Assembly (NCBI GenBank): GCA_963719505.1
Contig: CAVRCF010000003.1
Coordinates: 192,001-256,000, forward strand
DNA length: 64,000 nucleotides
Direction: 5' to 3'
Source of the DNA: Halobacteriovoraceae bacterium
GTDB taxonomy: Bacteria > Bdellovibrionota > Bacteriovoracia > Bacteriovoracales > Bacteriovoracaceae
The position numbers were made by a program, and so were the translations under genes. Below are positions 4-26,167 of this stretch, piece after piece (the first letter of the stretch is position 1; each line of letters opens with the position of its first letter). The notes under the pieces were generated by a model. The model saw only the letters and a list, made by a program, of their open reading frames with translations, was not told the origin of the DNA and did not search any database.

Positions 4-405
4 TTGCTGGTGTTAGAAGGTGAGCGTTTATCATTTCTCCTCGTTGATATTGGGACTTTCTCTGAGGAAAGACTTTCTAAATTTGAAAGCTTTAGGAAAC
101 TGAAAGATAGTTATAGTAAGCTGTGTAATGGTGAAGTTATCGAGATTGTAAGTTGTGATCTTAATAGTATTCAAGCCAGTTTTCCTTGGTACACTATGAA
201 GGGAGGAGCGACTCTAAGCTTTAAGGGCCTTGATCAAAAATTAAAGTTATCTTTCATGCAACCACAAAATACAAAGTTTCCCACTCATAAACTAGATAGC
301 AGCTTGTTACAAGTAATGGCACTTAGTGAAGGAGTGAGTGACCTCAAGTCAGGAATAGCATTTGGAAAAAAGTTCAAAGATATTATGTCTCACATGAACA
401 CCTAA
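4..405 (+). CDS. Hypothetical protein, 5' end probably outside the window; paralog of the frameshifted gene at 8353-8815
   Basis: Shares FPWY..GGA.L...SF.QPQNTKFP.HK.D.SL.Q.M...EG.SDLK.G..FG with 8353-8815. Confidence 0.75.
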   Translation: MLVLEGERLSFLLVDIGTFSEERLSKFESFRKLKDSYSKLCNGEVIEIVSCDLNSIQASFPWYTMKGGATLSFKGLDQKLKLSFMQPQNTKFPTHKLDSSLLQVMALSEGVSDLKSGIAFGKKFKDIMSHMNT

Positions 406-456
406 ATTTTTCTAGTCTCAGAAAGAAATAAACAAGATCAGAGGCTTGTCGTTTCG
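394..456 (+). repeat. Degenerate copy R1 of the tRNA-Asp-linked junction repeat
   Basis: atgaacacctaaatttttctagtctcagaaagaaataaacaagatcagaggcttgt aligns with atgaactcttgaacctttttaaaccccagaaacaaaaaaacaagctcaaggcttgt (5751). Confidence 0.6.
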
Positions 457-466
457 AATACAAATC

Positions 467-1798
467 TTATACAACTAAGTCACTATCGTTCTCTTCTTCT
501 CTTGATTCATCATGCGTACTTAGTGCAATTCCAAAGGTTAGAATTCCAACTCTACCCATTAACATTAAGATAACAATAAGAACTTTAGCAGTGAAACCAA
601 AGTCTGCAGTGATACCCATTGATATCCCAACAGTTCCAAGAGCTGATGCTGCCTCGAATAAGATTTTTAAAAATTCAATTTCAGGGTGGAGTGCCGTTAG
701 TAAAAACAAAAAGACAAATAAAACAAAAATATAATACGTAAAAGATGCTATTGCTGTGTGAAGTCTTCTCTCTGGTATTTCTCTTTTGCGAAAACGAATC
801 GAGTTTCTCCCTTTTAGTATACTTCTAACAAGGCCTATAAGAGCTGATAAGGTCGTTAGCTTTAACCCCCCACCAGTACCAGATGGAGAGGCTCCAAAAA
901 TCATTGCAAAAGTTAAAATGACTAAGGTCGATTTAGAAAGAGTCCCAATATCCAATGTGTTAAAACCTACAGTGGTTGATGCAGTCATCACTTGAAATAA
1001 AGAACTCAAAAAACGATTGAATGGTGAAAGGCTTTGTATGCCGGGCTCAGAAACAAATATTAGAAACGTTCCGATCACGGTTATCCATAAAGTCATCGAT
1101 AGAATGACTTTACTTGTAAATAAGAGACTTTTTCTTTGACCTCTAAAATTTTGCATAATGTCTGCAAAAACAATAAAGCCTATTGCTCCAAGATAGCTTA
1201 ATAGACTTAAAATAAAATTGACGCTTACAGAGTCTCTATAAGTTACAAATCCGTTTGGAAATAAACTAAAACCAGCTGTACAAAATGCAGAGATACTGTG
1301 AAAAATACTAAGCCATAGTGAATTATCTAAACCTTCTGAAGAAAATACAAAGTATAGCCAACACGCACCAATGAGCTCACTTACAAAAGTAAAAAGGATG
1401 ACATTTTTAAGAAAGTCACCAATTTCAAATCCCTCTGGTAGTGAGAAAGCAGACTTTGAGATTGCCTCTCTCGTTCGGGTGAGTCTAGATCCAATTGACA
1501 GAGCTACAAAAGAGCTAAAAGTCATATATCCAAGCCCTCCAGCTTGAAAGAGCAGGAGAACGATCAATTGTCCCCAAAAATTATAGCTAGAAGCTACATC
1601 AATAGTAACCAAACCAGTTGTTGAAACTGCAGAAGTTGCGATAAACAAATTATCAATACCATTAACTTCAGTATTTTGAAAAAATGGGGTGGAGAGAGCA
1701 ATCCAACCAATGATTATATAAGAAAGGTAACCAATAAAGATTGCTTTCGCTGGCTGACTTTTCACGAAAAGATAAATAATTGCAGAAATGCGATTCAT
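467..1798 (-). CDS. Trk/Ktr-family potassium uptake membrane subunit (TrkH/KtrB)
   Basis: Multi-TM protein with four pore-loop motifs: STTGL, FCTAGF, TTVGF, LGTVG; also GASPSGTGGG. Confidence 0.92.
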   Translation of the reverse strand: MNRISAIIYLFVKSQPAKAIFIGYLSYIIIGWIALSTPFFQNTEVNGIDNLFIATSAVSTTGLVTIDVASSYNFWGQLIVLLLFQAGGLGYMTFSSFVALSIGSRLTRTREAISKSAFSLPEGFEIGDFLKNVILFTFVSELIGACWLYFVFSSEGLDNSLWLSIFHSISAFCTAGFSLFPNGFVTYRDSVSVNFILSLLSYLGAIGFIVFADIMQNFRGQRKSLLFTSKVILSMTLWITVIGTFLIFVSEPGIQSLSPFNRFLSSLFQVMTASTTVGFNTLDIGTLSKSTLVILTFAMIFGASPSGTGGGLKLTTLSALIGLVRSILKGRNSIRFRKREIPERRLHTAIASFTYYIFVLFVFLFLLTALHPEIEFLKILFEAASALGTVGISMGITADFGFTAKVLIVILMLMGRVGILTFGIALSTHDESREEENDSDLVV

Positions 1799-1867
1799 AA
1801 TAAAACCTATTTTTTTTGATCTTAATTTTAGTTGTGATAATTAAGAATGACTACTTTTTTCAAATAA

Positions 1868-1960
1868 ATCCTCGATCCTTTTCAAACCTCAAAAAAAATA
1901 CAAACGAAGGAGGCTAGTCATTTTGTTATTATAAACCGCCCAAAAAAGGGGCGAAAGTGC
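1868..1960 (+). repeat. Degenerate copy R2 of the junction repeat
   Basis: ctcgatccttttcaaacctcaaaaa...gcccaaaaaaggggcgaaagtg is colinear with the 20759 and 25995 copies. Confidence 0.7.
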
Positions 1961-2247
1961 TCGCTAAAAACAACTGATCCCTAAATTTGTATCCCGAGTT
2001 ATATGTGCCCATAATCATTAAGCTTTAGTCTAGTAGCCGACAGGTTTAGTCATCGCTCCTCGATAAGAAGGACTTAAAACAATGGCTCTCTCCACGTCAA
2101 AAATTGGCTCTCATTAAAAACAAGAAACCTGTAGAGGTAAGAGCGAGCTTCAGGGAAATCTGAATAATATTGAGCTTTTCTCTTTATTTAAAAAATAGTA
2201 TCGTTTTTTACGTCAATAATTAAATTGTCACAGGATATGGTTGTATT

Positions 2248-3654
2248 ATGAAACAAGATTTTTTTAAACAAGTAGAGTTAAACTTTGATGAGGCTGCAAA
2301 ATATTTAAACAGCTCTAAAGATATCCTAAATCAAATAAAAGCAACTAATACAATTATTACCTTGAAATTTCCAATTAAGCGAGATGACGGATCTGTAGAG
2401 GTCATTCAAGCGTGGAGAGCACAACATAGTTATCACCGAGCTCCATGTAAAGGGGGAATTCGTTATGCCGCCATTGCAAATGAAGATGAAGTGAAAGCGC
2501 TTGCGGCTCTCATGAGTTATAAATGTGCCGTTGTGGATGTTCCATTTGGTGGAGCGAAAGGTGCTGTTAAAATTAATACGAAAGACTATTCTGAAGCAGA
2601 GCTAGAGCGCATAACGAGAAGACTGACTTTTGAACTTTATAATAGAAATTTTATTGGTCCAGGCATTGATGTTCCGGCACCTGATTACGGATCTGGTCCT
2701 AGAGAAATGGCTTGGATAGCAGATACGTTTAGGTCTCTATCAAATGACATCAATGGCTTAGGATGTGTAACTGGAAAGCCTGTATCCCAAGGTGGTATTA
2801 GAGGAAGAAACGAAGCAACTGGTATGGGGGTGGCTTTTGGACTACGCGAATTTTGTGAATCTGAAGAGTACTTAGGTAAATTAGGTTTACCTATTGGAAT
2901 AAGTGGCAAGAAAGTTGCCATTCAGGGATTCGGTAACGTCGGTTATCACAGTGCTTTCTATTTGGAACAGATGGGAGCTAAAATTGTGGCGATTTCTGAG
3001 TACGAGGGAATCATTGAAAATCCAGAAGGATTAAATATTGTTGAATTGCTAGCTCATCGTAAAGAAAATAAGTCTTTTAAAGGTTACAAAGGTGGAACGT
3101 TTTCAACTGATACGAATAAAATCTTCTCTTTCGATTGTGATATTCTTATCCCAGCGGCTTTAGAGTCACAAATCACCACGGAAAATTATAATGATGTAAA
3201 AGCTCAAATTATTGCAGAGGCTGCAAATGGACCTGTAACTTTTGATGCAAGTAAGAAGCTTTTTGAAAAAGGAGTCGTTGTTATTCCAGATATTTATTTA
3301 AATGCTGGTGGGGTAACAGTTTCTTACTTTGAATGGATAAAGAATTTATCACATATTAGGTTTGGAAGAATTGAAAGTCGAAATGATCAGACTAGCTACA
3401 AAAACATCGTCAACATGGTTTCAGAGATGACGGGTAAGAAAGTTGATAAGAGTATCATCGAGAAGTTTTCAACTAAAGGTGATGAAGCTTCATTGGTTGC
3501 TTCTGGACTTGAAGAAACAATGATAACTGCTTTACAGGACCTTCTTTTAATAGCGAAAGAACACAAATACGAAATTGATCTAAGAACTGCTGCGTTCATT
3601 TGTGCTATAAAGAAAATTTCTCTTTGCTATGAAGAAAGTGGAATCTTTCCTTAA
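2248..3654 (+). CDS. gdhA: Glu/Leu/Phe/Val dehydrogenase family, glutamate dehydrogenase
   Basis: PCKGGIRY, VPFGGAKG, DVPAPD, GFGNVG, EAANGP and NAGGVTVSYFEW motifs. Confidence 0.95.
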   Translation: MKQDFFKQVELNFDEAAKYLNSSKDILNQIKATNTIITLKFPIKRDDGSVEVIQAWRAQHSYHRAPCKGGIRYAAIANEDEVKALAALMSYKCAVVDVPFGGAKGAVKINTKDYSEAELERITRRLTFELYNRNFIGPGIDVPAPDYGSGPREMAWIADTFRSLSNDINGLGCVTGKPVSQGGIRGRNEATGMGVAFGLREFCESEEYLGKLGLPIGISGKKVAIQGFGNVGYHSAFYLEQMGAKIVAISEYEGIIENPEGLNIVELLAHRKENKSFKGYKGGTFSTDTNKIFSFDCDILIPAALESQITTENYNDVKAQIIAEAANGPVTFDASKKLFEKGVVVIPDIYLNAGGVTVSYFEWIKNLSHIRFGRIESRNDQTSYKNIVNMVSEMTGKKVDKSIIEKFSTKGDEASLVASGLEETMITALQDLLLIAKEHKYEIDLRTAAFICAIKKISLCYEESGIFP

Positions 3655-3730
3655 AATCAAATGATAATGAATCTCATTCATCAATATGGCTCAGATTTTT
3701 TCATTTTTTTACAAGATGTCTGAGTCAGTA

Positions 3731-3820: not shown

Positions 3821-3910
3821 ACCCGGTGACGCTCTTCGATTACTTTAATAATTTAGCATCACAAAGTGCGAAATAATTTTCTAGATCCAATTTACTTTGA
3901 ATTTAATTGG

Positions 3911-4030
3911 GCACGAACTCTTGGACCTTCTCAAACCCCAGAAACAAAAAAGCTGGGAAGCTTGTAATTTGAGTAATCTAAATGTCCAAGAAAGGGTTCT
4001 GAAATGGCGAGAGCGGCTCAACTTAAACCT
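3911..4030 (+). repeat. Full junction repeat R3 (hairpin arm, tRNA-Asp 3' end remnant, conserved right arm)
   Basis: gcacgaactcttggaccttctcaaaccccagaaacaaaaaagc...aaagggttctgaaatggcgagagcggctcaacttaaacc. Confidence 0.9.
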
Positions 4031-4229: not shown

Positions 4230-5693
4230 ATGAGCAATTTCTTTATTTATTTAACAATGTTTCTTTTAAGTATTAGTCTGATTTCATGCTCATCTGGCCC
4301 AACTAGTGGTGGTTACTTTCCTCAGGGGAAACCATTCAATATCGAGGGAACTGTATTTGAATATAGATACACAAAAGATAGCAAGTATGGGCTTACTATC
4401 GAATATTCTAATACTTGGGAACTTGAACCTATTTACTCTTCGATTAAAATCTTAAGTAAAAATGTTATACTCGTTTTAGAAACTGGAGCTAAATTTTATA
4501 AGCATTACAACTATAATACAAAAGAAATGAAAGAGACTGAAATTACCAAGGTTTATGTACCTGCTAATGAAGGCGAAAATGGTGCAGGCAGGGCAGTTTA
4601 TGTTGTTGTCAAAAAAGACTCATCTCACCATTTAGTTACTGATAAGCAAAACTTGAGTTTATTTGAATTAAAAGATCTTGATACCACAGACTCAAATTTA
4701 TTAGTGACGCAAACTCCTTTTGGTGATTTATTTATTCGTAAAAAAATTAATGATAGAAAATTTTACCAAGGAGTTTCAGCCAAAGGCGAGCTGACATCTT
4801 CTACATTCCCGGCGGATAAAGTTCACTTCATGATGAATGAAAGCACAATTAAAAAAGTCACACAATACCTGATACCGCTATTAACAATTGATGAATCGAG
4901 AGAGTTATACTGGCCAATTATCTTCTATTTCAATAATAACAAAGAATATTTAATTGAGAAGCCTGATCACATTCAGGGAGCTTACGTTGATTTTAATTTA
5001 AATGTATACAATCCTAGTTACAAAAAAAATCTATTTAATTTACCAACGAGTAGTGTGTTTTTCATTGTTTACTCTGGGCAGAACGGAAACAGTGCGTTTG
5101 AAAAAAGCTTTGTTATGCAAGACCTAGGTAGTTTTTCAGAAATGAAAAAAGTGCTTACAGACAAACCTAATAATATTAATGGTCTAAATCTGATTAGCAT
5201 ATTACCCGGAAAAGATAGTACTGGTAAAGGAGTTGTTTTTAATAATACTTTTCCTATTCTAAAAAATGAAGAAGGTAAGTATACTATTAAATCGCGTTTT
5301 GGAAGCTATAATGCAAACAATAGAGAATTTGATACACTTGACCAGGTTAGAAATCATTTAAATGAGAGAAGTTTAAATATTAATTCTGTCTCTACGAAAA
5401 TGTATGCTGATAACAAGAAAGAAGAGGCAAATAGAAGAGCAGTTAGTGATGCCACAGATAAAAGGATCAAAGATTGGCAGGATAAATTAAATGCCTCAGA
5501 CCTGGCAATTAAACAGGCTAATGAGCAAGCACAAAAAGATGAGAAAAATCGCGCCTGGAAAAGTGTCGGAGATCAAATTCAAAATGCTGGAGATAAAGCA
5601 AAGGTCAAAGGGGACTGTATCAGAAAAAGAACTCAGACCAAAAAAGATTACTTAGACAAGAAACAGGGATGGTATGAGACAGGTGGTTGTTAG
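4230..5693 (+). CDS. Lipoprotein with conserved C-terminal coiled-coil/Cys tail; paralog of 8815-10302
   Basis: Lipobox-like LISC after a hydrophobic N-terminus; C-terminus VGDQIQ..TQTKKDYLDKKQGWYETGGC is shared with 8815-10302. Confidence 0.85.
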   Translation: MSNFFIYLTMFLLSISLISCSSGPTSGGYFPQGKPFNIEGTVFEYRYTKDSKYGLTIEYSNTWELEPIYSSIKILSKNVILVLETGAKFYKHYNYNTKEMKETEITKVYVPANEGENGAGRAVYVVVKKDSSHHLVTDKQNLSLFELKDLDTTDSNLLVTQTPFGDLFIRKKINDRKFYQGVSAKGELTSSTFPADKVHFMMNESTIKKVTQYLIPLLTIDESRELYWPIIFYFNNNKEYLIEKPDHIQGAYVDFNLNVYNPSYKKNLFNLPTSSVFFIVYSGQNGNSAFEKSFVMQDLGSFSEMKKVLTDKPNNINGLNLISILPGKDSTGKGVVFNNTFPILKNEEGKYTIKSRFGSYNANNREFDTLDQVRNHLNERSLNINSVSTKMYADNKKEEANRRAVSDATDKRIKDWQDKLNASDLAIKQANEQAQKDEKNRAWKSVGDQIQNAGDKAKVKGDCIRKRTQTKKDYLDKKQGWYETGGC

Positions 5694-5750
5694 TTAGATT
5701 CTCCAGACTTTATGATATTTACCTAGTTATCACTTTTTAATTTGGTTAGT

Positions 5751-5869
5751 ATGAACTCTTGAACCTTTTTAAACCCCAGAAACAAAAAAACAAGCTCAAG
5801 GCTTGTAATTTTGGTAATCTGAATGCCTTAAAAGGGTTCGGAGATGGGGGGAGCGGCTTCACTTGAGCC
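5751..5869 (+). repeat. Full junction repeat R4
   Basis: Very similar to 25995-26101 through the tRNA 3' end remnant (tgggg..gagcg), then gcttcacttgagcc. Confidence 0.92.
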
Positions 5870-6305: not shown

Positions 6306-6309
6306 GAAA

Positions 6310-8309: not shown

Positions 8310-8336
8310 TTTCTTTTGAACCTCTTTCTAGTCTCT
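8310..8336 (+). repeat. Short fragment R5 of the junction repeat
   Basis: ttgaacctctttc is identical to 10559-10571; tttctagtctc is shared with R1. Confidence 0.45.
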
Positions 8337-10530: not shown

Positions 10531-10571
10531 AGGTCGAAAATGGCGGGAGCGGCTCCACTTGAACCTCTTTC
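10531..10571 (+). repeat. Right half R6 of the junction repeat, containing the exact tRNA-Asp 3' end
   Basis: tcgaaaatggcgggagcg is identical to 26084-26101, followed by gctccacttgaacc. Confidence 0.88.
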
Positions 10572-10711
10572 CAATAACTTAAAGTCTATGAGCATAGTAA
10601 TTGCCTTCGCCTACCATACTACAAAATTGATCAGCTCTGTTGGTAGTAAAAACTACCTTTATATAGAAAAATATAGTTTTTTGTGCTATTATGAATTCAA
10701 TGGAGGTACTT

Positions 10712-10936
10712 ATGGGTGCTAAGCAGCTTGCAACAAAAATTGATGAGAGTATTAAAGATGCTTTAGATCTATTCTGTGAAGATAGAGGTCTGAAGATTAA
10801 TAGGTTTCTAGAGGATGCAATTCTGGACAAAATTGAAGAGTATGAAGATATATCTGATATTCGAAAATTAAGAAAAGAAAAATCTCGCGACTTTCAAGAT
10901 GTTCTAAAAGAGTTGAAAACTAGTGGCAAATTATAA
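10712..10936 (+). CDS. Antitoxin (RHH/CopG-like) of a RelBE-type pair
   Basis: GGAGG RBS; small protein with an acidic central segment, overlapping the downstream RelE. Confidence 0.75.
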   Translation: MGAKQLATKIDESIKDALDLFCEDRGLKINRFLEDAILDKIEEYEDISDIRKLRKEKSRDFQDVLKELKTSGKL

Positions 10937-11186
10937 AATCGAAATTACTTCTACAGCAGAGAAGTCGTTAAAAAAAATACCTAAAAAAGATATTGGTAAA
11001 GTTGTTGAAGCAATCCAGATTTTGGCAATATCACCTTTCCCTAGTGGTTGCCGAAAACTTAAAGGTGAAGAAGACGTCTATCGTGTTCGCCAAGGAAATT
11101 ACCGAATAATTTATGATATTCTTGATACTAAGTTAATTGTCTTAGTTTTGAAAATTGGACACCGTAAAGACATCTATAAAAAGTAG
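10923..11186 (+). CDS. relE: RelE/ParE-family toxin
   Basis: RKLKG..YRVRQGNYRIIYDI....VLKIGHRKDIY. Confidence 0.92.
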   Translation: MANYKIEITSTAEKSLKKIPKKDIGKVVEAIQILAISPFPSGCRKLKGEEDVYRVRQGNYRIIYDILDTKLIVLVLKIGHRKDIYKK

Positions 11187-11450
11187 CTCTATTTCGAGCA
11201 TACAATTACTTACAAAACAACCACGAATAATAAACTTAAGAAAGCGTTCGATGAATGTGGCATTAGATATAAGACTTGGCATTGTTGCAGACATACTAGA
11301 GGTACATTTCTGTATGGAAAAACAGGGGATAAAGCTCTATCAATGAGCTGGTTAGGGCACTCGAGTGAGCGAGTTCACGACAAATATCTACATACTTATG
11401 AGGCCTTGATGAGAGAGATTAAATCGAAGGATTGTGATTGGGGAGATTAA
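11187..11450 (+). pseudogene. C-terminal remnant of a tyrosine recombinase/integrase (not in ORF track)
   Basis: My translation: KTWHCCRHTRGT (HxxR)...SWLGHSS (LGH)...DKYLH (catalytic Tyr); the N-terminal part is missing. Confidence 0.8.
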
Positions 11451-12800: not shown

Positions 12801-12874
12801 TAGTATAAAAAACGCTTTTCAGAGGCTTTTTTTGCAAGTGTAGACTGTGAATCTTCAAAATCAAAAGGTTAAAG

Positions 12875-14799: not shown

Positions 14800-15107
14800 A
14801 ATATCTCATAATCACTATGGCTATCTCTTGATGAGATAGACGTTGAGAGCATAGGTGACATGTTTATTTTTTTAGTTTTATGATCCAAGATATTTAAGAC
14901 ATTTATAAATCGCACAAGATCTGTTAATTCTTGATCAGAGATATGGTTCAAACCATCAAAATCTAATATCACTTCACTCGTTGTTGAAGCTTTACACAAG
15001 TCATTTAACTTTTCATAAGTTTCTGGGAAACACATTTGTTCCAATGATTCATGATAAATATTCACTTTAATAGTGTGACCTTGTCTGCTAAAAAAATTTA
15101 TTGGCAT
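14787..15107 (-). CDS. Divergent STAS-domain protein in the RsbS position
   Basis: VILDFDGLNHIS STAS-like motif; lies between the rsbR-like and rsbT-like genes. Confidence 0.55.
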   Translation of the reverse strand: MPINFFSRQGHTIKVNIYHESLEQMCFPETYEKLNDLCKASTTSEVILDFDGLNHISDQELTDLVRFINVLNILDHKTKKINMSPMLSTSISSRDSHSDYEILWKK

Positions 15108-15108
15108 A

Positions 15109-15528
15109 TCAGATATTTTCCTGATCCCTTGTTAACTTATAACCCAATTTTAACATACAGTATTGGAGGGCATTACCAATTGTAGTCTTAGTGGTCATTT
15201 GATCAAAATTAATATTGAGGGTTGTCATTGAGTGAGCAACGGTGGCATTTATTCCAGATAAAACGCAATCGCAACCCATTAATGTAGCGGCTTTATTAAG
15301 GTTTAAGATATGCTTTGAGACGGAACTATCAATAGCAGGTACATTAGAAATATCTACGATTAAAAAAGGTGCATCCTTATCTTGGATTGAGTGTAAGGTT
15401 TTTGATAAAATAGCCTCAGCTTTAGTTGAGTCAAGAAAGCCAGATATTGATAAAAATAAAATTCCATCCCACAGTTGATTAACGGTAATTAGTTCTTTGT
15501 AATCCGCATTATTTGCAAAATCAGTCAT
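15109..15528 (-). CDS. STAS-domain protein, RsbR-like (STAS only)
   Basis: LWDGIL...G.LDS..A, IVDISNVPAIDS, LMGC..VLSGI..VA. Confidence 0.85.
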   Translation of the reverse strand: MTDFANNADYKELITVNQLWDGILFLSISGFLDSTKAEAILSKTLHSIQDKDAPFLIVDISNVPAIDSSVSKHILNLNKAATLMGCDCVLSGINATVAHSMTTLNINFDQMTTKTTIGNALQYCMLKLGYKLTRDQENI

Positions 15529-15689
15529 ACATCATCCTTATTTAAAAATATTTATTAGTATAAACACAACGTATAGTAAGCTCAATAAGGCTAAACGTAA
15601 AAGTAATAATGTATAACTTGTCGTTCATACATAGCTGCAGTGAGTCGTTCTAAAGATTTAAAGTAAAAAGAGATTTTTGAGTATATCCG

Positions 15690-15961
15690 AAAAAAGTTTG
15701 GTTTTTAAAAGGAAATGAACTCTTATGAACATAAGATAACGGACAAGTTTGTAAAAAATGGTAGTGAATAAGTGTCTTGGTGACAAGATAACTAGATGAA
15801 AAAGTAGCAATGCGGATTTTTTATAGAGCTTTTGAAGTTATCCGCGCAGGCACTGAAATTGAGCAGAGTTTTGGGTGCAGGAATCCATCCCTGTTTTTGG
15901 CCCTCAGGGTGACAGGCCGATTTTTTTGTAGAAAAAGAGGAAAGTTAGTCGTGGATTTGGG
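15690..15961 (+). mobile_element. Orphan, diverged right-end non-coding region of an IS1380-like element
   Basis: ttggtgacaagataactagatgaaaaagta matches ttggcgacaaaataagtagatgaaaaagta (~23731-23760); ends in gtggatttggg like gcggatttggg at 25835 and 25948. Confidence 0.7.
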
Positions 15962-16108
15962 TGTTACAAGTCTTGCTTCAAAGATAAAAGTTTCTCGTAA
16001 AACCATTTATCATTAGAAAAAGAAATATCCTGATTAAGAGATGCTAAAAGATGACATAGCTAGTAAATTTTGTGAGAATTTTTATATTAAATTAAAATGG
16101 AGTTTAAT

Positions 16109-16180
16109 ATGAAATTTGTAGCACTATTATTACTTTTATTATCAACTTCAATTTTTGCTAAAGATAAGTTTGATTTAAAC
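16109..16180 (+). pseudogene. N-terminus of a secreted protein truncated by an IS
   Basis: GGAG RBS then the signal peptide MKFVALLLLLLSTSIFAKDKFDLN, cut at the IS end. Confidence 0.6.
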
Positions 16181-16283
16181 TGTTCGTGACCCTGGACTGC
16201 GGTCGTAATATCGGAGTCCAACATACTTATTTAAAGCCCTGAAAATAGGTCAATTCTTAAATCTGATATAATCAATTTAGGAG

Positions 16284-16685
16284 TTGAAAATGACAAAAAG
16301 AAACAGAAAAACATTTACCAAAGAGCAAAAAGACTGGGCCGTCGACGAATTCATTGCCGGAAGCCTCAGTGTCGATCAAATTGCAGAGCAACTCGGAGCT
16401 GAACCTCAATACATTTATCGATGGAAAGTTCTCAGAGAAGAAAAACTTAAAGGTCTCAGAGTTGAGGAGCTAACAGCTCGCGGAAATTCTATCGAGGAAT
16501 CACAAAGGATTTTTGAATTTGAGCTCGAAGTTGATGCCTATAAAAAGAAATTTGCCGAACAAGTTCTCATAAGTGACCTTTTAAAAAAACTCCTGAAGTA
16601 TCCACCCTTACAACGAGAGAGCGAATTGACTGGGTTACTAAAAACTATAAAAGCACAGGAACTAAAAAGAAGGCAATCCAAATAA
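16284..16685 (+). CDS. IS3 OrfA (HTH)
   Basis: RKTFTKEQK...IYRWK; A7 slippery site at ~16583. Confidence 0.88.
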   Translation: MKMTKRNRKTFTKEQKDWAVDEFIAGSLSVDQIAEQLGAEPQYIYRWKVLREEKLKGLRVEELTARGNSIEESQRIFEFELEVDAYKKKFAEQVLISDLLKKLLKYPPLQRESELTGLLKTIKAQELKRRQSK

Positions 16686-17506
16686 TGGAGCTATCATCAT
16701 CTACTTATTATAAAGATTCAAAAGTTACCAGAGCAGAAAAAGAAGAACATGATGCTGATATTCGAGGTAAAGTTGAACAGCTAAGAGTAGCGTTTTCAAG
16801 AGCCGGTTACAGGCCATTACTACAGCACTTAAAAAGACATGGTATCTCTGTTGGAGAAACTCGTTTAAGACGAATTCTAGGTGAATCAGGGCTCTTTTTA
16901 AAGCCAAAAAGAAAGTATATGAGAACAACGACGTCAGATCATGATGAACTTGTTCATCCAAATTTGATTCAAGGGATGACTATTGATGGAGTTAATCAAG
17001 TTTGGGCCGGAGATATAACTTATATTCGAATTAACAATGGATTTGTTTTCCTGGCAGTCCTTCTTGATCTTTATTCACGTAAAGTCATTGGTTGGTCAGT
17101 CTCAAAAAGAATAGATGGGCAGTTAACTCTAGATGCTTTGAAGATGGCCATCAAACGAAGAAATCCACCAGAGGGAGTTATTCACCACACAGATCGAGGA
17201 GTTCAGTATCTCTGTGAAAAATATGTAAAAGAATTGAAGGAAAATAATTTTCACCTATCTTGTTCTCGAAAAGGGAATCCTTATGACAACGCTTGGTCAG
17301 AATCTTTTATGAAAACTTTAAAGCACGAAAAAGTTTTTATGAGGAAGTACGATACATTTTTAGACGTGATTGATAAGCTGCCATATTTTATTGAAGAAGT
17401 TTATAATAAGAAAAGATTGCATTCATCTTTGAATTACTTGCCACCGGAAGAATTTGAAGATATTTACACTGAAGAAAAAAAGGATCGACCTGTTTTTATA
17501 CTTTAG
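16685..17506 (+). CDS. IS3 OrfB transposase catalytic domain
   Basis: WAGDITY, HHTDRGVQY, NAWSESF. Confidence 0.93.
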   Translation: MELSSSTYYKDSKVTRAEKEEHDADIRGKVEQLRVAFSRAGYRPLLQHLKRHGISVGETRLRRILGESGLFLKPKRKYMRTTTSDHDELVHPNLIQGMTIDGVNQVWAGDITYIRINNGFVFLAVLLDLYSRKVIGWSVSKRIDGQLTLDALKMAIKRRNPPEGVIHHTDRGVQYLCEKYVKELKENNFHLSCSRKGNPYDNAWSESFMKTLKHEKVFMRKYDTFLDVIDKLPYFIEEVYNKKRLHSSLNYLPPEEFEDIYTEEKKDRPVFIL

Positions 17507-17575
17507 CGTGTTGGTGTCCGATCAAACGACCGCAGTCCACCCCCCTTTTGATGGCTACCTCTTAACGGAGGAAAA

Positions 17576-17941
17576 ATGGGAAGAAATAGAAGAAGATTTA
17601 GTGAAGATCAAAAAGTTCAAATCCTACAGGAACATCGTTCAAAAGGTGCTCCAATTTCAGTTTTAGCACGAGTCCATGATATAAATGCAGTAACTTTATA
17701 CCAATGGAAAAGAGCTATGAAAGACAAACCTGATACTAATATTGATGTTGCTGACCTTTTGAAACAAATTGATCAACTAAAAAAAGACAAAGATAAACTA
17801 CTAAAGAAAGTTGGCGAGTTTACCCTCAGAGAAGAGGTCGCTCAGGATATCATCGACTTTTATAAAAAAAAGATCTTGGAACAGGAGTTGAGCGAGCAAA
17901 AGAATTCATCAAACTCAAAAAGAAAGGATCAAAAAAAATGA
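17576..17941 (+). CDS. IS3/IS2-like OrfA
   Basis: RRRFSEDQK...LYQWKR; A8G frameshift motif at ~17864. Confidence 0.88.
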   Translation: MGRNRRRFSEDQKVQILQEHRSKGAPISVLARVHDINAVTLYQWKRAMKDKPDTNIDVADLLKQIDQLKKDKDKLLKKVGEFTLREEVAQDIIDFYKKKILEQELSEQKNSSNSKRKDQKK

Positions 17942-18741
17942 TCTGCGAAATGTTTGGAGTTCACTCAAAATCAATTTATAAAACTACTAGCTCAAAGAAA
18001 TTTTACTTTAAAGCTGAAGATGAAGATATTCTCAGCCAGATTCGATCTATCGTTTCTTTGCGCCCAACTTATGGTTATAAAAGAGTTACGGCCATGGTCA
18101 ATCGTATGCGACTTACCCTAGGCCATCCAAGGCTTAATAAGAAGCGTATTTACAGGATAATGAGAATGAATGGCCTTCTTCTTCCAAAGTCTGCTGTGAC
18201 GAGAACTCACACTTCAACTGGAAAAGTAATGACTCTGCATTCGAATATGAGGTGGTGCAGTGATTGTTTTGAGATTAAGTGCTTTAACGGAGAAAAATTT
18301 TTTGTATCTTTTGTTTTAGATACATGTGACAGAGAAGTTCTCTCATTTGTAGCCTCAAAATCACCACTGCTTGCGACTGATATTGAAAGTTTAATGCTAA
18401 AAGCTGTACGCTATAGGTTTAAAGATTATAAGACTTCTAGAACGATAGAATTTTTATCGGATAGAGGAAGTATTTACCGAGCCCATTCAGTTAAGAATTT
18501 AGCGAATCATCTTGGTTTAAAAAGCTGTTACACAGCAGCCTATAGTCCAGAATCAAATGGAATGAGTGAAGCTTTTGTGAAAACGATCAAGCGAGATTAC
18601 GTCTACAACAGCGATTGTTACAGCTCAGATATATTGCTTAAAATGATTAAGGGATGGGTGAACGATTATAATGAAATAGCACCACATTCAGGGCTTGGCA
18701 TGTTGAGTCCAAAAGAGTATTTATTAGAAAATCAAAGGTAG
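17938..18741 (+). CDS. IS3/IS2-like OrfB transposase
   Basis: RWCSDCFE, LSDRGS, SPESNGMSEAFVKTIKRDY. Confidence 0.93.
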   Translation: MICEMFGVHSKSIYKTTSSKKFYFKAEDEDILSQIRSIVSLRPTYGYKRVTAMVNRMRLTLGHPRLNKKRIYRIMRMNGLLLPKSAVTRTHTSTGKVMTLHSNMRWCSDCFEIKCFNGEKFFVSFVLDTCDREVLSFVASKSPLLATDIESLMLKAVRYRFKDYKTSRTIEFLSDRGSIYRAHSVKNLANHLGLKSCYTAAYSPESNGMSEAFVKTIKRDYVYNSDCYSSDILLKMIKGWVNDYNEIAPHSGLGMLSPKEYLLENQR

Positions 18742-18764
18742 CCTGAAACGGGGTCCAATCCAAA

Positions 18765-18947
18765 TATGATGTCTTGGATCTAATTAAAAACAATAAGTTG
18801 AAGTTAGTGCTAGCAGACTTAACACCTGAGTCTATGCCCATTTCATTCATCTACTCACATAAAAAACACCTTTCTCAAAAAGTGACAGCTTTTATGGATT
18901 GGTTTGATGAAATTTTCCAAAGCAATATAACGATTAATAAAGGATAA
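18765..18947 (+). pseudogene. C-terminal remnant of a LysR-type regulator (not in ORF track)
   Basis: My translation: YDVLDLIKNNKLKLVLADLTPESMPISFIYSHKKHLSQKVTAFMDWF, like the end of a CrgA-type LysR substrate domain. Confidence 0.7.
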
Positions 18948-18951
18948 ATTT

Positions 18952-20013
18952 ATGTTAACTAAGAAGAGATACTCTCTTAAGGAAATTATTATTTGGACTA
19001 AAGCTGAGATTTTTATGTTTTTCATCTTATCAATTGCTGTGGCTATTTTATATTCATTTTTTAAACTTGAGTTTCTTCAAGTCCCATGGACGCCCGTTGC
19101 TCTGATAGGTACGGCGGTGGCATTTGTCTTAGGGTTTCAGAATAACTCGGCTTATGGGCGAATTTGGGAGGCACGTAAAATTTGGGGTGGAATTGTTAAT
19201 ACTTCGAGAATGTGGGGTATGAATATTAAAGACATGATAACAAATGAACACGTAAAGGACTCATCATCACTGGAAAACTTAGACGACTATGTGAAACACT
19301 TTGTAAAAAGACACATCGTTTGGTTAACTGCTCTAAGACATGCAATGAGGCAACCTAAAAAATGGGAAGTCTATTCCGATTTAAAAAGTAACAATAAGTG
19401 GTCAGAGATAATCCACATTCCAGAGAGGAAGGTTGATGTTATAATAGATCTTAAAAAATACTTGTCTGAAAGCGAAATGTCTTATGTTGAAAATAAAAGT
19501 AACAAGCCAGCTGCTATTTTGTTTCTCCAGTCGAGTGAACTCAAAAAGTTAAAAGAAAGCGGACATATATGGGAGTTCTCGTATTTGGAACTACAAAGTC
19601 TTTTAAATGAACTTTTTACGTTGCAAGGAAAGTCAGAGCGAATAAAAAACTTTCCATACCCAAGACAGTACGCAACTTTGAGCCATATCTTCGTTTGGAT
19701 CTTTTTAATCTTACTTCCATTTGGCTTAATACCTGAGTTCTCAAAAATAGGTCAAAGCTTTTCAAGTCAGTTTCCCATTGTTGGTGATTACTTTGTAATT
19801 ATTGGTGTGTTTTTTTGTGTTGTTGTATCTTGGGTTTTTTACACTATGGAGAGAATTGGCAGAACTGGAGAAAACCCTTTTGAAGGCACTCCAAACGACG
19901 TTCCTATTTCAACAATCTCAAGAGGTATTGAAATTGACTTGTTGCAATTACTAAATGAGGATAAAGAATCTATACCTTCTCAGTTTCCTGAAAATTATGA
20001 TGTACAGATGTAG
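18952..20013 (+). CDS. Bestrophin-family ion channel
   Basis: F.NNSAY.R.WEARK.WG..VN, ERIKNFPYP, ENPF..NDVP. Confidence 0.9.
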   Translation: MLTKKRYSLKEIIIWTKAEIFMFFILSIAVAILYSFFKLEFLQVPWTPVALIGTAVAFVLGFQNNSAYGRIWEARKIWGGIVNTSRMWGMNIKDMITNEHVKDSSSLENLDDYVKHFVKRHIVWLTALRHAMRQPKKWEVYSDLKSNNKWSEIIHIPERKVDVIIDLKKYLSESEMSYVENKSNKPAAILFLQSSELKKLKESGHIWEFSYLELQSLLNELFTLQGKSERIKNFPYPRQYATLSHIFVWIFLILLPFGLIPEFSKIGQSFSSQFPIVGDYFVIIGVFFCVVVSWVFYTMERIGRTGENPFEGTPNDVPISTISRGIEIDLLQLLNEDKESIPSQFPENYDVQM

Positions 20014-20036
20014 TAACTAATAAATTATATTGGTGA

Positions 20037-20733
20037 CTAATCTGTTTGTGTGTACCAAGCTCTTATGAGAAGCGATTGGAAAAATTGTACTGGTTTTTTA
20101 AAGCTTGATGCTTCAAATATCCCTTCAGCTTCTTGCGGAGATATAATACCAAGGTTCTCTTTCACTCCCTTTACAGCATTTTGTAACTCTGATTCATTAA
20201 CTTTGTGATCTTGCTTCATGCCTAACCAGTTCTTCATTAAATTTGGAAATGAAGAAGTTTCAAAGTCTGCACTTATCTCGGCATTAATAAAAATACCTTT
20301 TGCTTTAACCGACTTTCAATATCTTTAAATAGGTTTTCTCTTTCCTCAATAGTTTTTAAAAAAAATGGGTAACAAATAAACACATTGAGGCATCAAATTT
20401 ATCTTCGCTCACGAGCTCGTGTAGGAAACCGTGGAATAGCTCACACTGACTTTCTAAGTTTTCATTTTTAAATCGTTCTTTACAATCATTAATCATCGAT
20501 AGTGATGGCTCTATCCCAACAAATTTCCATGTTGGGTTTTCTTTCGCTATTTTAATTACTTCAACTCCAGTCCCAATACCAACGCAAAGTATATGAGCAT
20601 TGTCAGGTAGATTTTGTAATATTAGCGAATTTAAGTAATGCAGGTTTTCAGAGATTGGTTTGTATGATTCATTTGTTTTATCATAAACATCTGCAGTCAT
20701 ATTATTAAAAATTTCTACAGCTTTATTCTTCAT
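20037..20733 (-). pseudogene. Class I SAM-dependent methyltransferase, frameshifted
   Basis: ILCVGIGTG motif I, GIEPS; C-terminal FFQSLLIRAW in a separate ORF. Confidence 0.75.
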
Positions 20734-20758
20734 TTTGCTTTCCAGTTAATTTTCTGTC

Positions 20759-20850
20759 GCACGAACTCTTGAACCTTTTCAAACCCCAGAAACAAAAAAA
20801 CGAAGCAAAAGCTTCGTAATCTCGGTAATCTAAATGCCCAAAAAGGGTTC
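20759..20850 (+). repeat. Junction repeat R7, left arm, ending at aaaagggttc
   Basis: Near-identical to 25995-26085; inner hairpin shows covarying acgaagc/gcttcgt. Confidence 0.92.
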
Positions 20851-20874
20851 AATCTATAATCAGGTTAGAGATTA

Positions 20875-21955
20875 TTAAAGTTTATTTAAATAACTAATAT
20901 CAATTAATCTCTGATATTTTTTTCGTAATAAAAATGAAGGTAAATATTTAAGAATTAAGTTTCTGAAGAAGTTTTTTAAATTAGAAGTTGAATGGACAAA
21001 TTTTCCATAACTCCAAGACTCGTCAACTATAGATTTAACTTTTTTATATCGAAGGTTGACTAAATGAGAACCTGCACTATCGAACCCATATTTGTTGATA
21101 CAAAGACTCAGTGTGTAAGCATCCTCTATCGCTTGACAGGCGCCTTGTGCCAAGTTTGCAGTAGTTGCATGAATTGAATCACCTATTAAAATTATGTTAT
21201 TAGAATACCACTTTTTTGGAACTGGGTTGAGATCATGCATGTCGTTTCTGTAGATTTTGTCACTACATTCGATTATTTCAATTGCAGTTTCTTCAAAATC
21301 ATCTAAAAGTTGCTTGAGCTTTTTCTTTACATCTGTTGAGTCTTTTAGACCCTCTGGAGAAGTAGTTGCTAAGTACCAATATATTCTATCATCATAAAAA
21401 GGAATAGTGGCAAATCTTACATTGTTACCGAGTTGTTCGTTATATGCATCTTGAAACTTTAATTGAATAGGTTTAGATGTTACTCCTCGCCACACAGTCT
21501 GATCTGAGTATCTTTTAGCAATACTAGGAAAGAGTTGTTTTCTGACTAGAGAATTTATACCGTCACAGGCAACAAGAACTTCATAATTCGAGTGTGTTCC
21601 GTCTTCCCAAGAAATCATAGATGAATCTTGTTTTATTTGTTTTAAACGTTTATTGAAGATAATCTTTTCTTTTGGAAGATTTTCTAAAAGCATATCAGCT
21701 AAAAACTTCCTTGAAACGTTAGCGCCTTGACTTGAAATAGGGAGGTTTCTTATCAAATTTAACTTGTGATCAGTAATTACTGCTTTGTTTATGTATGCTC
21801 CTCGAGTAAGAAGAGTTTTTGTATTTATTACGTTTGATAGAATCTCAATAGTGCTTGAGCTTAAACCAATACCTGTTTCTATTTCTGGAACAACCTCTTG
21901 AGATTCATAAAGAACAAAGTCAATTTCTAAAATCTGTAAAAAATTTGCAAGTGTT
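20875..21955 (-). pseudogene. FAD-dependent monooxygenase truncated at its N-terminus by IS1380
   Basis: ACDGINS and IGDSIHA...QGACQAIEDA motifs; frame extends to LTLANF at the IS junction, and the GxGxxG motif is missing. Confidence 0.85.
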
Positions 21956-23959: not shown

Positions 23960-25396
23960 TTGATATCTTTTTATCGCCAAACAAAAAAAAACAAACCAAA
24001 AAAGCTTTTTAGCAAAAGAACTGCCATGTACAAAACTATCAAAATTGAATCAACTTCTCAAACATTCTCTTCTCATTCTGGTCTATTTTTATTTGAAGAG
24101 CTCTGGAAGCAACTAAAACTAGATAAAAGACTCAAATCTAAGATGCCCCGCAAAAAGAAAAACATAGGTCCAACTCAATTAGATAAGTTTAAATCTCTAC
24201 TTTATTCGTTTGTTGTTGGAAATGATTGTCTTTCTGATATTGATAATTCAAATAAAGATCCATTGTTTGCAGAACTTACTGGGAAGGTTGCAGCTAGGAC
24301 TCAAGGTGATTTTTTAAAGTCATTTGGAAATAGACATGCTGAAAAATTACAGGAATTTTTAGTTGAGCTAACTTTTGAGCTTAGAGCTTTGATGTTTCCA
24401 GATGATATAAAGTTTATTCTTTCAATGGATTCTACGCCTCATGAACATTACGGAAAAAATATGGAAGGGATGGCGTGGAACTATAAAAATATGTGGTGCC
24501 TTGATTCTCAAAATGCTTATGATCAATTTGGATTTAGTTATTTGTTCGATCTTCGTCCTGGAAATACTCATTCGGGTAAAGATGCTGAGCGCTGGGTGCA
24601 TGAAATTTTTAAGAATTGTCCAAGTCATTTAGAAAGATGGTTTAGAGCAGACTCCGCATATGGAAAGCAAGAAGTTTATAAAGCTCTTCAAGCCAAAGGA
24701 GCAAAGTTTGCAATAGTTCTTAGGGATAATATAAGTCGATATGTTAGAAAGAAGAATCGAAATATGTTGAATTGGGAGAAGACAGAACTTGAGTTTTTCA
24801 AGTCAAAAGAGTGTGAAATAGCGATGTCTCATTACCCAATTAAAAGCTTAGGGGAGATGCGAGTCGTTTTTATTAGAGCCCGAAAGAGCGTAGATGATAT
24901 CAATGAGGCTCGAGACCTCTTTAAGAATTACAATCCTGAAGAACACGACTATAGACATTATTCTATCATAACAAACATTGGTTTTTCAGAGATGAACAAT
25001 GAAGAAGTTTTTGAGTTTTATAAAGATAGAGCAACAGCAGAGAGCTATATTCGAGAGCAAAAGTACGGCTTTGATTTTTTAAACTTTCCTTGTCGTCGTT
25101 TGAGAGCGAATAAAATTTTTGGATTAGTAGGAACGTTTGCACATAATTTAACGAGAGTAATTTCTTTTTGCATGGAAGAGAAGTGGCGAACAGTTCGAGA
25201 TAGAAAAAGTGGAGAAAGGATTCGTGTAAAACAGCTTGGATATTTTTCAAAGAGTGTTAGAAGTCATGTCATAAATATTGCGGGGCAGTTGATCCGAAGT
25301 GCTCGGAAACTAAAGTTAAGAATTTACTTTAAACAGGAGGTGGTGCTTAACAGGATTATGAAAAATTTATTGTTTAAGTTTAGTTTACAAACCTGA
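23960..25396 (+). CDS. IS1380-family transposase (copy 2)
   Basis: Protein identical to copy 1. Confidence 0.9.
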   Translation: MISFYRQTKKNKPKKLFSKRTAMYKTIKIESTSQTFSSHSGLFLFEELWKQLKLDKRLKSKMPRKKKNIGPTQLDKFKSLLYSFVVGNDCLSDIDNSNKDPLFAELTGKVAARTQGDFLKSFGNRHAEKLQEFLVELTFELRALMFPDDIKFILSMDSTPHEHYGKNMEGMAWNYKNMWCLDSQNAYDQFGFSYLFDLRPGNTHSGKDAERWVHEIFKNCPSHLERWFRADSAYGKQEVYKALQAKGAKFAIVLRDNISRYVRKKNRNMLNWEKTELEFFKSKECEIAMSHYPIKSLGEMRVVFIRARKSVDDINEARDLFKNYNPEEHDYRHYSIITNIGFSEMNNEEVFEFYKDRATAESYIREQKYGFDFLNFPCRRLRANKIFGLVGTFAHNLTRVISFCMEEKWRTVRDRKSGERIRVKQLGYFSKSVRSHVINIAGQLIRSARKLKLRIYFKQEVVLNRIMKNLLFKFSLQT

Positions 25397-25721
25397 GCGC
25401 GTGTTCTTTGAAAAATGAATATTGTAAACCAGCTTGAACTACTGCCACCAAGGCAGACGTGCGCCTTGAGTACGTCTTTGAGTAGTTAAAACATACGCTC
25501 GAGAAGAAAGGTTGTGTTTTTATCGGAGGAAAATAGAGAATGGAAATGAAGTAGGGGACAACTTTTGAATAAAGGTTTGGGAATGGCTGTTTTGGCGACA
25601 AAATAAGTAGATGAAAAAGTACCTGGGAGCTTTTTGAAGAGAGTTTTGAGTTTACTCGCGGAAAATTTTGATGTTGGAAAAAAAGATAGCGATTTAAAAT
25701 GAGCCGAATTGAAAAAAAAGA

Positions 25722-25948
25722 GCTAGAGCAAAAAAAAAGGCGCAACTATGCGACCTCTATGGACCAGCGAACTCAAAATGAGCCGAATGAAAAAAATATT
25801 GTCAGAGCAGTGGAAAAGATTCTCGCGGATTTGGGCTAGAGCAAAAAAAAAGGCGCAACTATGCGACCTCTATGGACCAGCGAACTCAAAATGAGCCGAA
25901 TGAAAAAAATATTGTCAGAGCAGTGGAAAAGATTCTCGCGGATTTGGG
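25722..25948 (+). repeat. 113-bp tandem duplication of the IS right end
   Basis: gctagagcaaaa...ctcgcggatttgg starts at 25722 and again at 25835. Confidence 0.9.
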
Positions 25949-25994
25949 ATTTGGGTTTTGTTTTTAGATGTTTTTTTCATTGATATTTTCCGCT

Positions 25995-26101
25995 CACGAA
26001 CTTTTGAACCTTTTTAAACCCCAGAAACAAAAAAACAAGCTCAAAGGCTTGTAATTTCGGTAATCTAAATGCCCAAAAAGGGTTCGAAAATGGCGGGAGC
26101 G
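25995..26101 (+). repeat. Junction repeat R8, continuous with the tRNA-Asp 3' end
   Basis: Reference copy for R1-R7. Confidence 0.93.
26029..26052 (-). terminator. Rho-independent terminator downstream of tRNA-Asp, inside the repeat
   Basis: Minus strand acaagc-ctttga-gcttgt followed by a T-run. Confidence 0.7.
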
Positions 26102-26167
26102 AAGGGACTCGAACCCTCGGCCTTCTGCGTGACAGGCAGACGTTATAACCAACTTAACTACGCCCCC
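26091..26167 (-). tRNA. tRNA-Asp(GTC)
   Basis: GGGGGCG/CGCTCCC acceptor stem, TCTGC-CTGTCAC-GCAGA anticodon arm, GGTTCGAGT T-loop, encoded CCA. Confidence 0.98.

Follow-up and report, generated by a model that had tools for sequence, protein, structure and literature searches.

How can a bacterial chromosome come to carry, behind a single tRNA gene, a row of short, mostly one-gene units parted by recurring junctions, none of which brings a working integrase? The question is raised by a stretch of 64,000 nucleotides from a Halobacteriovoraceae bacterium (GenBank assembly GCA_963719505.1, here G000; this whole stretch, G000:C3:192001-256000, is called the window, and coordinates are window positions unless a contig is named), in which the ~95 bp downstream of tRNA-Asp together with the last 11 nt of the tRNA are repeated in direct orientation and delimit about seven units. 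The array was probably built by serial tyrosine-integrase insertions into the 3′ end of tRNA-Asp, within the core that the junctions share, that is, by tandem accretion. The original prediction, made from the sequence of the window, had seen in it an integron-like platform for gene capture. What is new is an integrase/att family which forms unusually dense integrase-less arrays, while the mechanism of accretion at tRNA genes (tDNA) is known.

Results

The tRNA-Asp gene and its repeated junctions

The assembly (3.69 Mb in 5 contigs, 37% GC, 83.5% complete by marker count) contains one tRNA-Asp gene among the 32 tRNAs found. This tRNA-Asp(GTC), on the minus strand at 26091..26167 (ARAGORN; Rfam tRNA, 70.6 bits) with a promoter-like site at 26187-26215 on the same strand, would be the integration target (attB side), and an Rfam scan of window 1-30000 (E ≤ 0.1) returned it and no other RNA family.

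That the segment behind the tRNA is a genuine repeat, as had been claimed, was borne out over the whole genome by nhmmer, with a profile built from five copies, and by blastn as a second search. Five nhmmer matches, at 25992-26114, 5747-5868, 3909-4028, 20756-20879 and 1860-1983, have E values of 2e-34 to 4e-21 (1e-27 to 4e-21 for the latter four), and 392-456 (E = 0.0012) brings the significant matches to six; a partial copy at 10531-10564 has E = 0.5, and the remaining matches are two noise ones on C1 (E = 0.11 and E = 0.75). Outside C3:192392-218114 neither search found a copy in the 3.69 Mb, and all copies lie within 26 kb, so that the scatter expected of repetitive extragenic palindromic (REP) or miniature inverted-repeat transposable (MITE) elements is not what is seen. 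The restriction to one locus and the tie to the tRNA end identify the junctions as recombination sites rather than REP/MITE elements.

All junctions, designated J1 to J8 with J8 next to the tRNA, lie on the minus strand. The two copies farthest from the tRNA had been described as the most degenerate, and they are: identity to J8 is 85/89 for J7, 95/103 for J4 and 89/103 for J3, and falls to 65/84 for J2 and 54/73 for J1. Together with the terminator that opens each distal arm directly after CCATTT (see below), this gradient upholds the polarity ascribed to the array.

Anatomy of the junctions

Read in the tRNA sense, the junctions are centred on a core, CGCTCCCGCCATTT (14 bp; 26088..26101, minus), in which TTT follows the final 11 nt of tRNA-Asp and which is, in the alignments, the sole segment common to tRNA-type, pseudo-T and O-less junctions; we infer that it is the crossover region. 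In the copies away from the tRNA, the core is preceded by a conserved pseudo T-arm, AAGAGGTTCAAGTGGAGC, where the tRNA has its own CGAGGGTTCGAGTCCCTT, and GGTTCAAGTGGAGCC stands in these copies in the place of GGTTCGAGTCCCTTC of the tRNA. The extent first given for the repeat, ~95 bp plus 11 nt, is thus correct as far as it goes, while the non-tRNA copies run ~20 nt further, into the pseudo T-arm. As the pseudo T-arm differs from the T-arm of the tRNA, a local duplication of the tRNA end is excluded.

After the core, the O arm presents in order the motif GAACCCTTTTT, a hairpin followed by a T-run, and the inverted motif AAAAAGGTTCAA. In J8 (O arm of ~95 bp, 25995..26087, minus) the hairpin ACAAGC/GCTTGT and its T-run are enclosed by the inverted repeat GAACCCTTTTT...AAAAAGGTTC, which makes the O arm imperfectly palindromic, with a fold z of about -2.5 in four of six copies. 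The invariant part of the junction is the tRNA-derived core with the pseudo T-arm, which do not look like attC boxes. A hairpin with T-run is present in 29 of 33 aligned junction copies, an alignment that includes the near-duplicate contigs mg114/mg115 and G203/mg121, and takes at least four different stem sequences; RNAalifold on the 33 copies gave no consensus structure, the hairpin variants being out of register in the alignment, and they were folded singly instead. Around the terminator hairpin, tRNA-Asp-type and tRNA-Ser-type O arms have an inverted repeat GAACC(C/T)TTTTT ... AAAAAG(G/T)TTC, to which GGTTCAA in the pseudo T-arm is related. The O-arm inverted-repeat pairs are invariant and hence without covariation signal; judged by their sequence, they and GGTTCAA are candidate binding sites of the integrase or of an accessory protein.

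Beyond the pseudo T-arm, a P arm of ~60 bp (10575-10630 in the window) has three repeats in G201. P arm, pseudo T-arm, core and O arm add up to a full site of ~190 bp, which is the size of a tyrosine-integrase attP.

The junctions are unequally complete. J4 (5747..5868; terminator 5790-5806) and J3 (3909..4028) are full junctions, with pseudo T-arm, core and O arm and with 3 mismatches each in the 26 nt of pseudo T-arm plus core (26-mer), while J2 (1860..1983; hairpin 1936-1954) is a degenerate full junction and J1 (392..456) a degenerate partial O arm which abuts the stop of an upstream open reading frame (ORF). J6 (10531..10630) consists of the pseudo T-arm and core, as an exact copy of the 26-mer that recurs in other genomes, and of the ~60-bp P arm, without an O arm; its tRNA-end part only (10531-10574) is repeated, 23/24 to J8, which is not significant alone in the nhmmer search. 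In J7 (20756..20879; terminator 20800-20817), only the O arm is kept (20760-20850) and unrelated sequence takes the place of the core and pseudo T-arm. The segment at 8310..8336, which had been counted as a further copy and is termed J5 (R5) here, could not be maintained as one: it is a 14/15 match absent from the blastn and nhmmer results, and judged from this similarity possibly a collapsed junction, without statistical support.

A terminator scan of the tRNA strand gave matches at J8, J7, J4, J6 and J2. Where the O arm is absent (J6 and sites in G035, G096, G202 and mg120), another hairpin with T-run follows directly after CCATTT; in J6, this is the hairpin in the distal flank at 10499-10516. 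From its sequence, every distal arm looks like a former terminator of the tRNA gene, and distal arms with a terminator directly after CCATTT are as serial insertion at the tRNA predicts.

Occurrence in other genomes

Among metagenome-assembled genomes of the Bacteriovoracaceae type (the family genomes), the O arm was found in 21 of 201 sampled and in 3 of the 4 genomes of the genus, G000 included. With up to 3 mismatches allowed, the 26-mer was found 18 times, in 12 of 237 family genomes from 9 of 69 genera, and its reversed control 0 times. Of ~185,000 species genomes, 6 contain its exact 22-mer, in 10 stretches, and each of the 6 belongs to this group; 16 metagenome stretches contain it too, while the pseudo-T pattern was found in no stretch of viral contigs. 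Arrays are common, with junctions that often follow one another at 0.5-5 kb: 11 of 13 loci analysed together hold 23 inter-junction intervals with a median of 1718 bp (range 520-10199 bp). One of them, the array of G062 with six junctions, begins with a junction (L032 (G062:C7) 3163-3287) that has a true T-stem 3′ half; ARAGORN found no tRNA upstream of it and an intact tRNA-Asp at a contig end, G062:C2:81-157, so that the assembly break probably lies inside the array.

Conservation of the junction far exceeds that of the host, with up to 97% identity between genera in which the genes alongside it are only ~70% identical. The tRNA plus O arm is 97.7% identical to that of G035, of another genus, while the adjacent permease gene is ~74% identical, and in the genus-mate G002 the O arm is only 79-86% identical. 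G201 shares with G000 the integrase stump described below (87% in nucleotides) and a ParDE toxin–antitoxin module (82%), without a DNA match in 3.8 kb of core-gene flank, which indicates that integrase-less pieces have travelled between distant hosts. ParDE adjoins the pseudo T-arm in G000, G201, G202 and G003, at array positions that differ among the four. A HigBA module is found in G000 and four metagenome contigs; in one of these, L114, it is 86% identical and forms a 1.25-kb integrase-less unit directly at tRNA-Asp. A Gp49/helix-turn-helix (HTH) pair occurs in G201, G203 and mg118, and a unit with a 167-aa ORF stands beside ParDE in G003 and beside HigBA in mg120. Gene content between junctions thus varies among genomes and some units occur in different neighbourhoods, as a capture locus had been predicted to show.

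The integrase stump and its relatives

In window 1-30000, the Phage_integrase domain is not found in any ORF at the usual threshold; of 12 PF00589 matches in the genome, 10 are over the cut-off and none of the 10 is in the array, and the resolvase domain PF00239 has 0 matches in the genome. The weakest of the PF00589 matches, below threshold (11211-11399), is a C-terminal tyrosine integrase remnant of 77 aa at 11214..11444 on the plus strand, which corresponds, at 95-96% identity, to residues 367-443 in intact metagenome proteins of 443-445 aa (P0002, P0003, P0005 and P0007). These proteins are recognized by PF00589 and by phrog_1, annotated as integrase in PHROGs; P0002 matches with E = 1.6e-8 and E = 1e-18, respectively, and has the catalytic motifs TGMRFNE (box I Arg), WHCCRHTRGT (HxxR) and LGHSSERVHDKYLH (catalytic Tyr region). 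The stump keeps HxxR and the catalytic-Tyr region and lacks the first ~366 aa; with only the last two catalytic motifs, it cannot be active. For the recombinase that had been predicted, the candidate is the tyrosine integrase of which this remnant lies between J6 and J7; no intact cognate was found in G000 or in any of the 12 junction-bearing family genomes.

Intact integrases of 443-445 aa were found neither in 238 genomes of the order and class nor in viral contigs, and among 50,697 phage records and 72,556 plasmid records no relative of the family could be detected. The best relative in G000 is 29% identical and located at a tRNA-Arg. Across the arrays, stumps occur in 3 of the 23 intervals (G000, G201 and G096), near the pseudo-T end, and none is intact. 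In the distantly related G000 and G201, the stump begins at residue 366/367 of 443, at 11214 in the window and at 3425 of L071 (G201:C246); 239 bp are shared and the DNA on either side is unrelated. Upstream, a PF05016 ParE ends 27 bp away in G000, and the stop of a PF15781 ParE-like toxin abuts the stump in G201.

An intact relative, 451 aa and 64% identical, is encoded in a 12-kb island at tRNA-Ser(GCT) of G082 (L069 (G082:C13:25000-40127) 2032-14140). Junctions of the same kind delimit the island, with the same pseudo T-arm and with the acceptor sequence switched to that of tRNA-Ser, and a Gp49/HTH toxin–antitoxin pair adjoins the pseudo T-arm. The island also encodes a family-B DNA polymerase of 1003 aa, an Xer-like recombinase of 244 aa and a primase/helicase-like protein, and by this gene content, which is pipolin- or casposon-like, it resembles an integrative element able to replicate itself; the integrase has a further copy (98%) on G082:C1.

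Units and cargo of the window

Unit A, between J7 and J8 (20880-25991), contains a truncated flavin adenine dinucleotide (FAD)-dependent monooxygenase (20875-21756; Pfam, used for gene families over window 1-30000, aligns positions 153-316 of the 349 of FAD_binding_3) and two tandem insertion sequence (IS) copies with DDE_Tnp_1_4 transposases (22099-23535 and 23960-25396). The IS pair (21940-25520) has a period of 1861 bp and 98-100% identity, the same IS being found at at least 3 other places of the genome, and two exact copies of a 113-bp tandem repeat (25722-25947) lie directly beside the tRNA-proximal junction.

Unit B, between J6 and J7 (10575-20755), opens at the pseudo T-arm of J6 with a ParE toxin (PF05016; 10923-11186) and an upstream 81-aa putative antitoxin (together 10691..11186, plus), followed by the integrase stump. 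The remainder (12111..20733) encodes, by Pfam, an EEP nuclease/phosphatase, a response regulator, a histidine kinase, an anti-sigma-type kinase, a STAS protein, two IS3-family copies, a bestrophin and a methyltransferase fragment. Bestrophin, the STAS/kinase/response-regulator cluster and the EEP-family enzyme look intact; the methyltransferase fragment, the two IS3 copies and the integrase stump are signs of decay, and stump, gene fragments and IS together characterize unit B as the decayed remnant of an autonomous element. The alternative that the intervals are what remains of large islands, which had been named as contrary to a capture platform, thus applies to this 10.2-kb interval, with its truncated integrase by the pseudo-T end.

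Unit C carries a 495-aa secreted or lipoprotein-like protein (8815-10302) without Pfam/NCBIfam match, with a signal-peptide-like N-terminus ending in Cys. This protein and another of 495 aa (L038 11624-13111) had been considered as recombinases and were rejected, being mutually unrelated and without Pfam/NCBIfam family; the N-terminus of the window protein also speaks against it. Unit D consists of an IS and a HigB-like toxin/HTH antitoxin pair (6015-6585, plus; Pfam) which adjoins the pseudo T-arm of J4, so that both toxin–antitoxin modules stand, as had been described, beside junctions.

Units E, F and G hold one intact gene each, with 10-264 bp from gene to junction, and E and F, which encode no recombinase, each lie between two full junctions (J4/J3 and J3/J2). 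The cargo of E is a 487-aa signal-peptide protein of no known family (4230..5693, plus), a paralogue (29% identical) of the 495-aa protein of unit C, likewise without Pfam/NCBIfam family; both may be predator surface proteins. Unit F carries a glutamate dehydrogenase (GDH) paralogue (2248..3654, plus; Pfam), 36-42% identical to the housekeeping-type enzyme encoded at C1:708980 and with homologues of 63-70% that are confined to 5 of the 236 other family genomes. The idea that GdhA is a mobile cassette was rejected, as 0 of 19 GDH loci, the five closest included, has a junction or tRNA within ~1.5 kb. Unit G carries a second TrkH-type cation transporter (467..1798, minus), which shares 34% identity with its counterpart on contig C1. 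The single-gene character claimed for several intervals is sustained by the Pfam analysis for TrkH, GdhA and the 487-aa protein, whereas the monooxygenase between J7 and J8 is a fragment. The cargo is accessory: GdhA and TrkH are divergent second copies and the GC content of the units, 32-36%, is below that of the flank (37.6%).

The DNA to the left of the window is accessory too, with ORFs of 560 aa and 153 aa that only 5 of 237 family genomes have; variability thus extends past the left edge of the window, and the outer end of the island was not reached. Neighbouring these two, a 150-aa ORF (G000:C3:189018-189470), ~3 kb left of the TrkH unit, matches no more than the C-terminal end, positions 404-491, of the 502-position TrkH model. 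As for the native far flank, DUF3050, the gene beyond the last junction in G046 and G062, is on a different contig in G000.

Discussion

Accretion at tRNA-Asp

According to the reading that we consider probable, elements of one family would have entered the one tRNA-Asp gene again and again at its 3′ end. The attP of such an element would be composed of the P arm, the pseudo T-arm (AAGAGGTTCAAGTGGAGC), the core CGCTCCCGCCATTT and a P′ arm that opens with an intrinsic terminator and is, for the majority of elements, the ~95-bp O sequence. By crossing over in the core, the element would restore the tRNA gene and place its own terminator behind it, and each insertion would displace older units outward, each then being preceded by a pseudo-T/core junction. 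Junction anatomy, confinement to the locus, spread between genera and the integrase remnant are observed, whereas the order of insertion, like the position of the crossover, is inferred, and the family of the stump is the putative maker of all junctions. The integrase would be encoded by the incoming elements and not by a platform: the supposed capture platform has no platform-encoded recombinase, attI or promoter. As the cognate integrase is absent from the assembly, the array would probably not be moving at present, barring the arrival of an integrase in trans.

Several observations weigh against this account. An intact cognate integrase lies beside a tRNA-Asp junction in 0 of the 23 intervals, so that the link between integrase and site is made by the remnants and the tRNA-Ser relative; among the 12 junction-bearing family genomes, none has a close relative (at least 60% identity) of the integrase, and G007 alone has one of 39%, on another contig. 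For G000 itself, a completeness of 83.5% implies that the integrase could be missing from the assembly. The stumps of G000 and G201 share an identical truncation point with different flanks on both sides, for which simple decay is inadequate; nor does random decay account for the recurrent breakpoint beside two different toxin genes. The core is absent from J7 and J5 is doubtful, which leaves the unit boundaries there uncertain.

Cassettes or decayed islands

How the units became so small is a question within accretion, as the following two explanations are sub-readings of it and not mutually exclusive across units. The first, which is the integron-like prediction in its strong form and which we regard as a possibility short of probable, has non-autonomous cassettes of 1-3 genes with a ~190-bp attP, which the 443-aa integrase, provided in trans, would excise and insert at the core of tRNA-Asp, in a gene-capture array that toxin–antitoxin cassettes would stabilize. 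Twenty of the 23 intervals, of 1.7 kb in the median, are without integrase trace and the smallest, of 520-790 bp, still have both arms; in L114 (1.25 kb), G046 (1.4 kb) and G002 (1.24 kb), the tRNA-proximal and presumably youngest unit is already devoid of an integrase. Units E, F and G of the window are compact and intact, the modules ParDE, HigBA, Gp49/HTH and 167-aa ORF recur in differing neighbourhoods, and the 26-nt pseudo-T/core is exact across genera. On the other hand, a resident cognate integrase is found in 0 of the 12 junction-bearing family genomes, and the shared modules conserve only the toxin–antitoxin genes with the P arm and pseudo T-arm end while the opposite boundary varies between genomes, so that fixed cassette boundaries are not supported. 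The same array is moreover decayed in its integrase stump, gene fragments and coreless junctions, searches with exact motifs favour well-preserved junctions, and neither circles nor empty sites were observed.

The second, which can be entertained only tentatively for all units, is that every unit was an autonomous island at entry, of which deletions left immobile, att-bounded remnants comparable to cis-mobilizable elements (CIMEs), with selection for toxin–antitoxin and useful genes. It accounts for the position of the stumps in 3 of 23 intervals, near the pseudo-T end, which is that of the integrase and toxin–antitoxin module in the intact tRNA-Ser relative, and for the IS insertions, the truncated methyltransferase and monooxygenase and the coreless or degenerate junctions of the window; integration followed by CIME decay and further accretion is also, in the available part of the source, the published account of such tandems (PMC5704250). 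It demands, however, many clean deletions that spared both arms and one whole gene, and the youngest-looking units, with near-perfect tRNA junctions, are in several genomes already without integrase. Integrase-less modules are also far more identical between distant genomes than core genes, which implies that they moved after or without the integrase.

That the repeats are no tyrosine-type sites at all, and instead are REP/MITE-like, or arose when the terminator region of tRNA-Asp was duplicated locally or crossed over unequally, or serve a large serine recombinase, is very improbable and close to refuted, as the imperfectly palindromic O arm, whose fold is of moderate stability (z about -2.5 in four of six), is set against the lack of any copy away from the locus, a pseudo T-arm foreign to the local tRNA and yet found in other genera, 0 matches to the PF00239 resolvase in G000 and a tyrosine integrase as the sole recombinase trace inside arrays.

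Relation to known systems

Chromosomal integrons are arrays of attI/attC cassettes with a Pc platform, sites of R′′/L′′-L′/R′ architecture and interspersed toxin–antitoxin cassettes. The tRNA-Asp array is like them polarised and made of short, mostly one-gene units with ~100-bp imperfect palindromes, interspersed toxin–antitoxin modules and more degenerate older units. It differs in having no IntI and no attI/Pc platform, in a tRNA-derived core in place of R′′/L′′-L′/R′, in cargo genes that are not co-oriented and in a recombinase which is element-borne. A search of the whole genome for IntI (TIGR02249) gave 4 weak matches, the best with 44 bits against a cut-off of 265 and none near the array on C3. 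The array is not an integron.

Closer in mechanism are the CIMEs of the ICESt1/ICESt3 type, described in the accessible portion of the source as integrase-less units with both att sites, stacked by site-specific accretion and mostly decayed (Pavlovic 2004 and Bellanger 2011, as cited in PMC5704250). Units E and F, with both att sites and without recombinase, are stacked in the same way at the target gene's end. Going by that portion, the units here are far smaller (median 1.7 kb) and without conjugation or mobilisation genes, their target is the tRNA-Asp 3′ end of predatory Bacteriovoracaceae-type bacteria, their junction has a pseudo T-arm and a tRNA terminator module, and no intact related element exists in the array or elsewhere in the assembly.

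In Prochlorococcus, tycheposons insert serially at tRNAs, with partial tRNAs between the units, fragmented integrases and adaptive accessory cargo, as far as the text consulted describes them (10.1101/2020.12.28.424599). Tandem tRNA-targeting elements with partial tRNA copies between them, in which newcomers push older units inward to the island, are a common trait. Measured by that same text, the differences lie in the host phylum and presumably the integrase family, in the lack of an intact element in the window and in a repeat much longer than the ~40-nt att site of tycheposons, which includes a terminator-bearing arm.

For the tDNA islands found by Islander, the sections of the source at hand report a tyrosine integrase that targets the 3′ part of the tRNA, with the gene restored and the displaced fragment in direct orientation at the far end; a tandem member needs its own integrase, and only 4 tandems of at least 3 were counted among 3919 islands (PMC4383910). 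The intact tRNA-Asp and the direct-oriented 3′-end copies (11 nt + TTT) at J6, J4 and J3 agree with this scheme. Unlike the islands described in these sections, none of the 7 units of the window and none of the 23 intervals has an intact integrase of its own, three having stumps, and the fragment is an element-borne variant, the pseudo T-arm, instead of the displaced tRNA end; the rarity of tandems of at least 3 (4/3919) contrasts with the ~7 units of this window.

A limited search of the literature on genomic islands of Bacteriovorax brought up no description of this att/integrase family, and the parts of PMC12642874 and PMC5760749 that could be consulted contain no tRNA-Asp arrays.

Significance

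Arrays of this kind escape finders of the Islander type, which, according to the available sections of PMC4383910, require an integrase in each island, and this is why such arrays have gone unreported. For locating such hotspots, the 26-mer can serve as a simple sequence tag. In form, the array is a known route of island building which is here unusually compact and integron-like. Even its conservative reading defines a new integrase/att family with a 14-bp core and a pseudo T-arm motif, whose elements, on invading an essential single-copy tRNA gene, supply it with a replacement terminator.

Further-reaching, and in our view doubtful, is the notion of a trans-mobilised cassette system of predators anchored at tRNA-Asp, an analogue of the integron built from other parts, with a sister lineage that targets tRNA-Ser(GCT). 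That the attP of a cassette in such a system mimics the T-arm/acceptor end of the tRNA and brings its own tRNA terminator is a conjecture of similarly limited likelihood. If it were true that small units move in trans, the arrays would represent a second, non-integron route to single-gene capture, set in predatory bacteria with constant access to the DNA of their prey.

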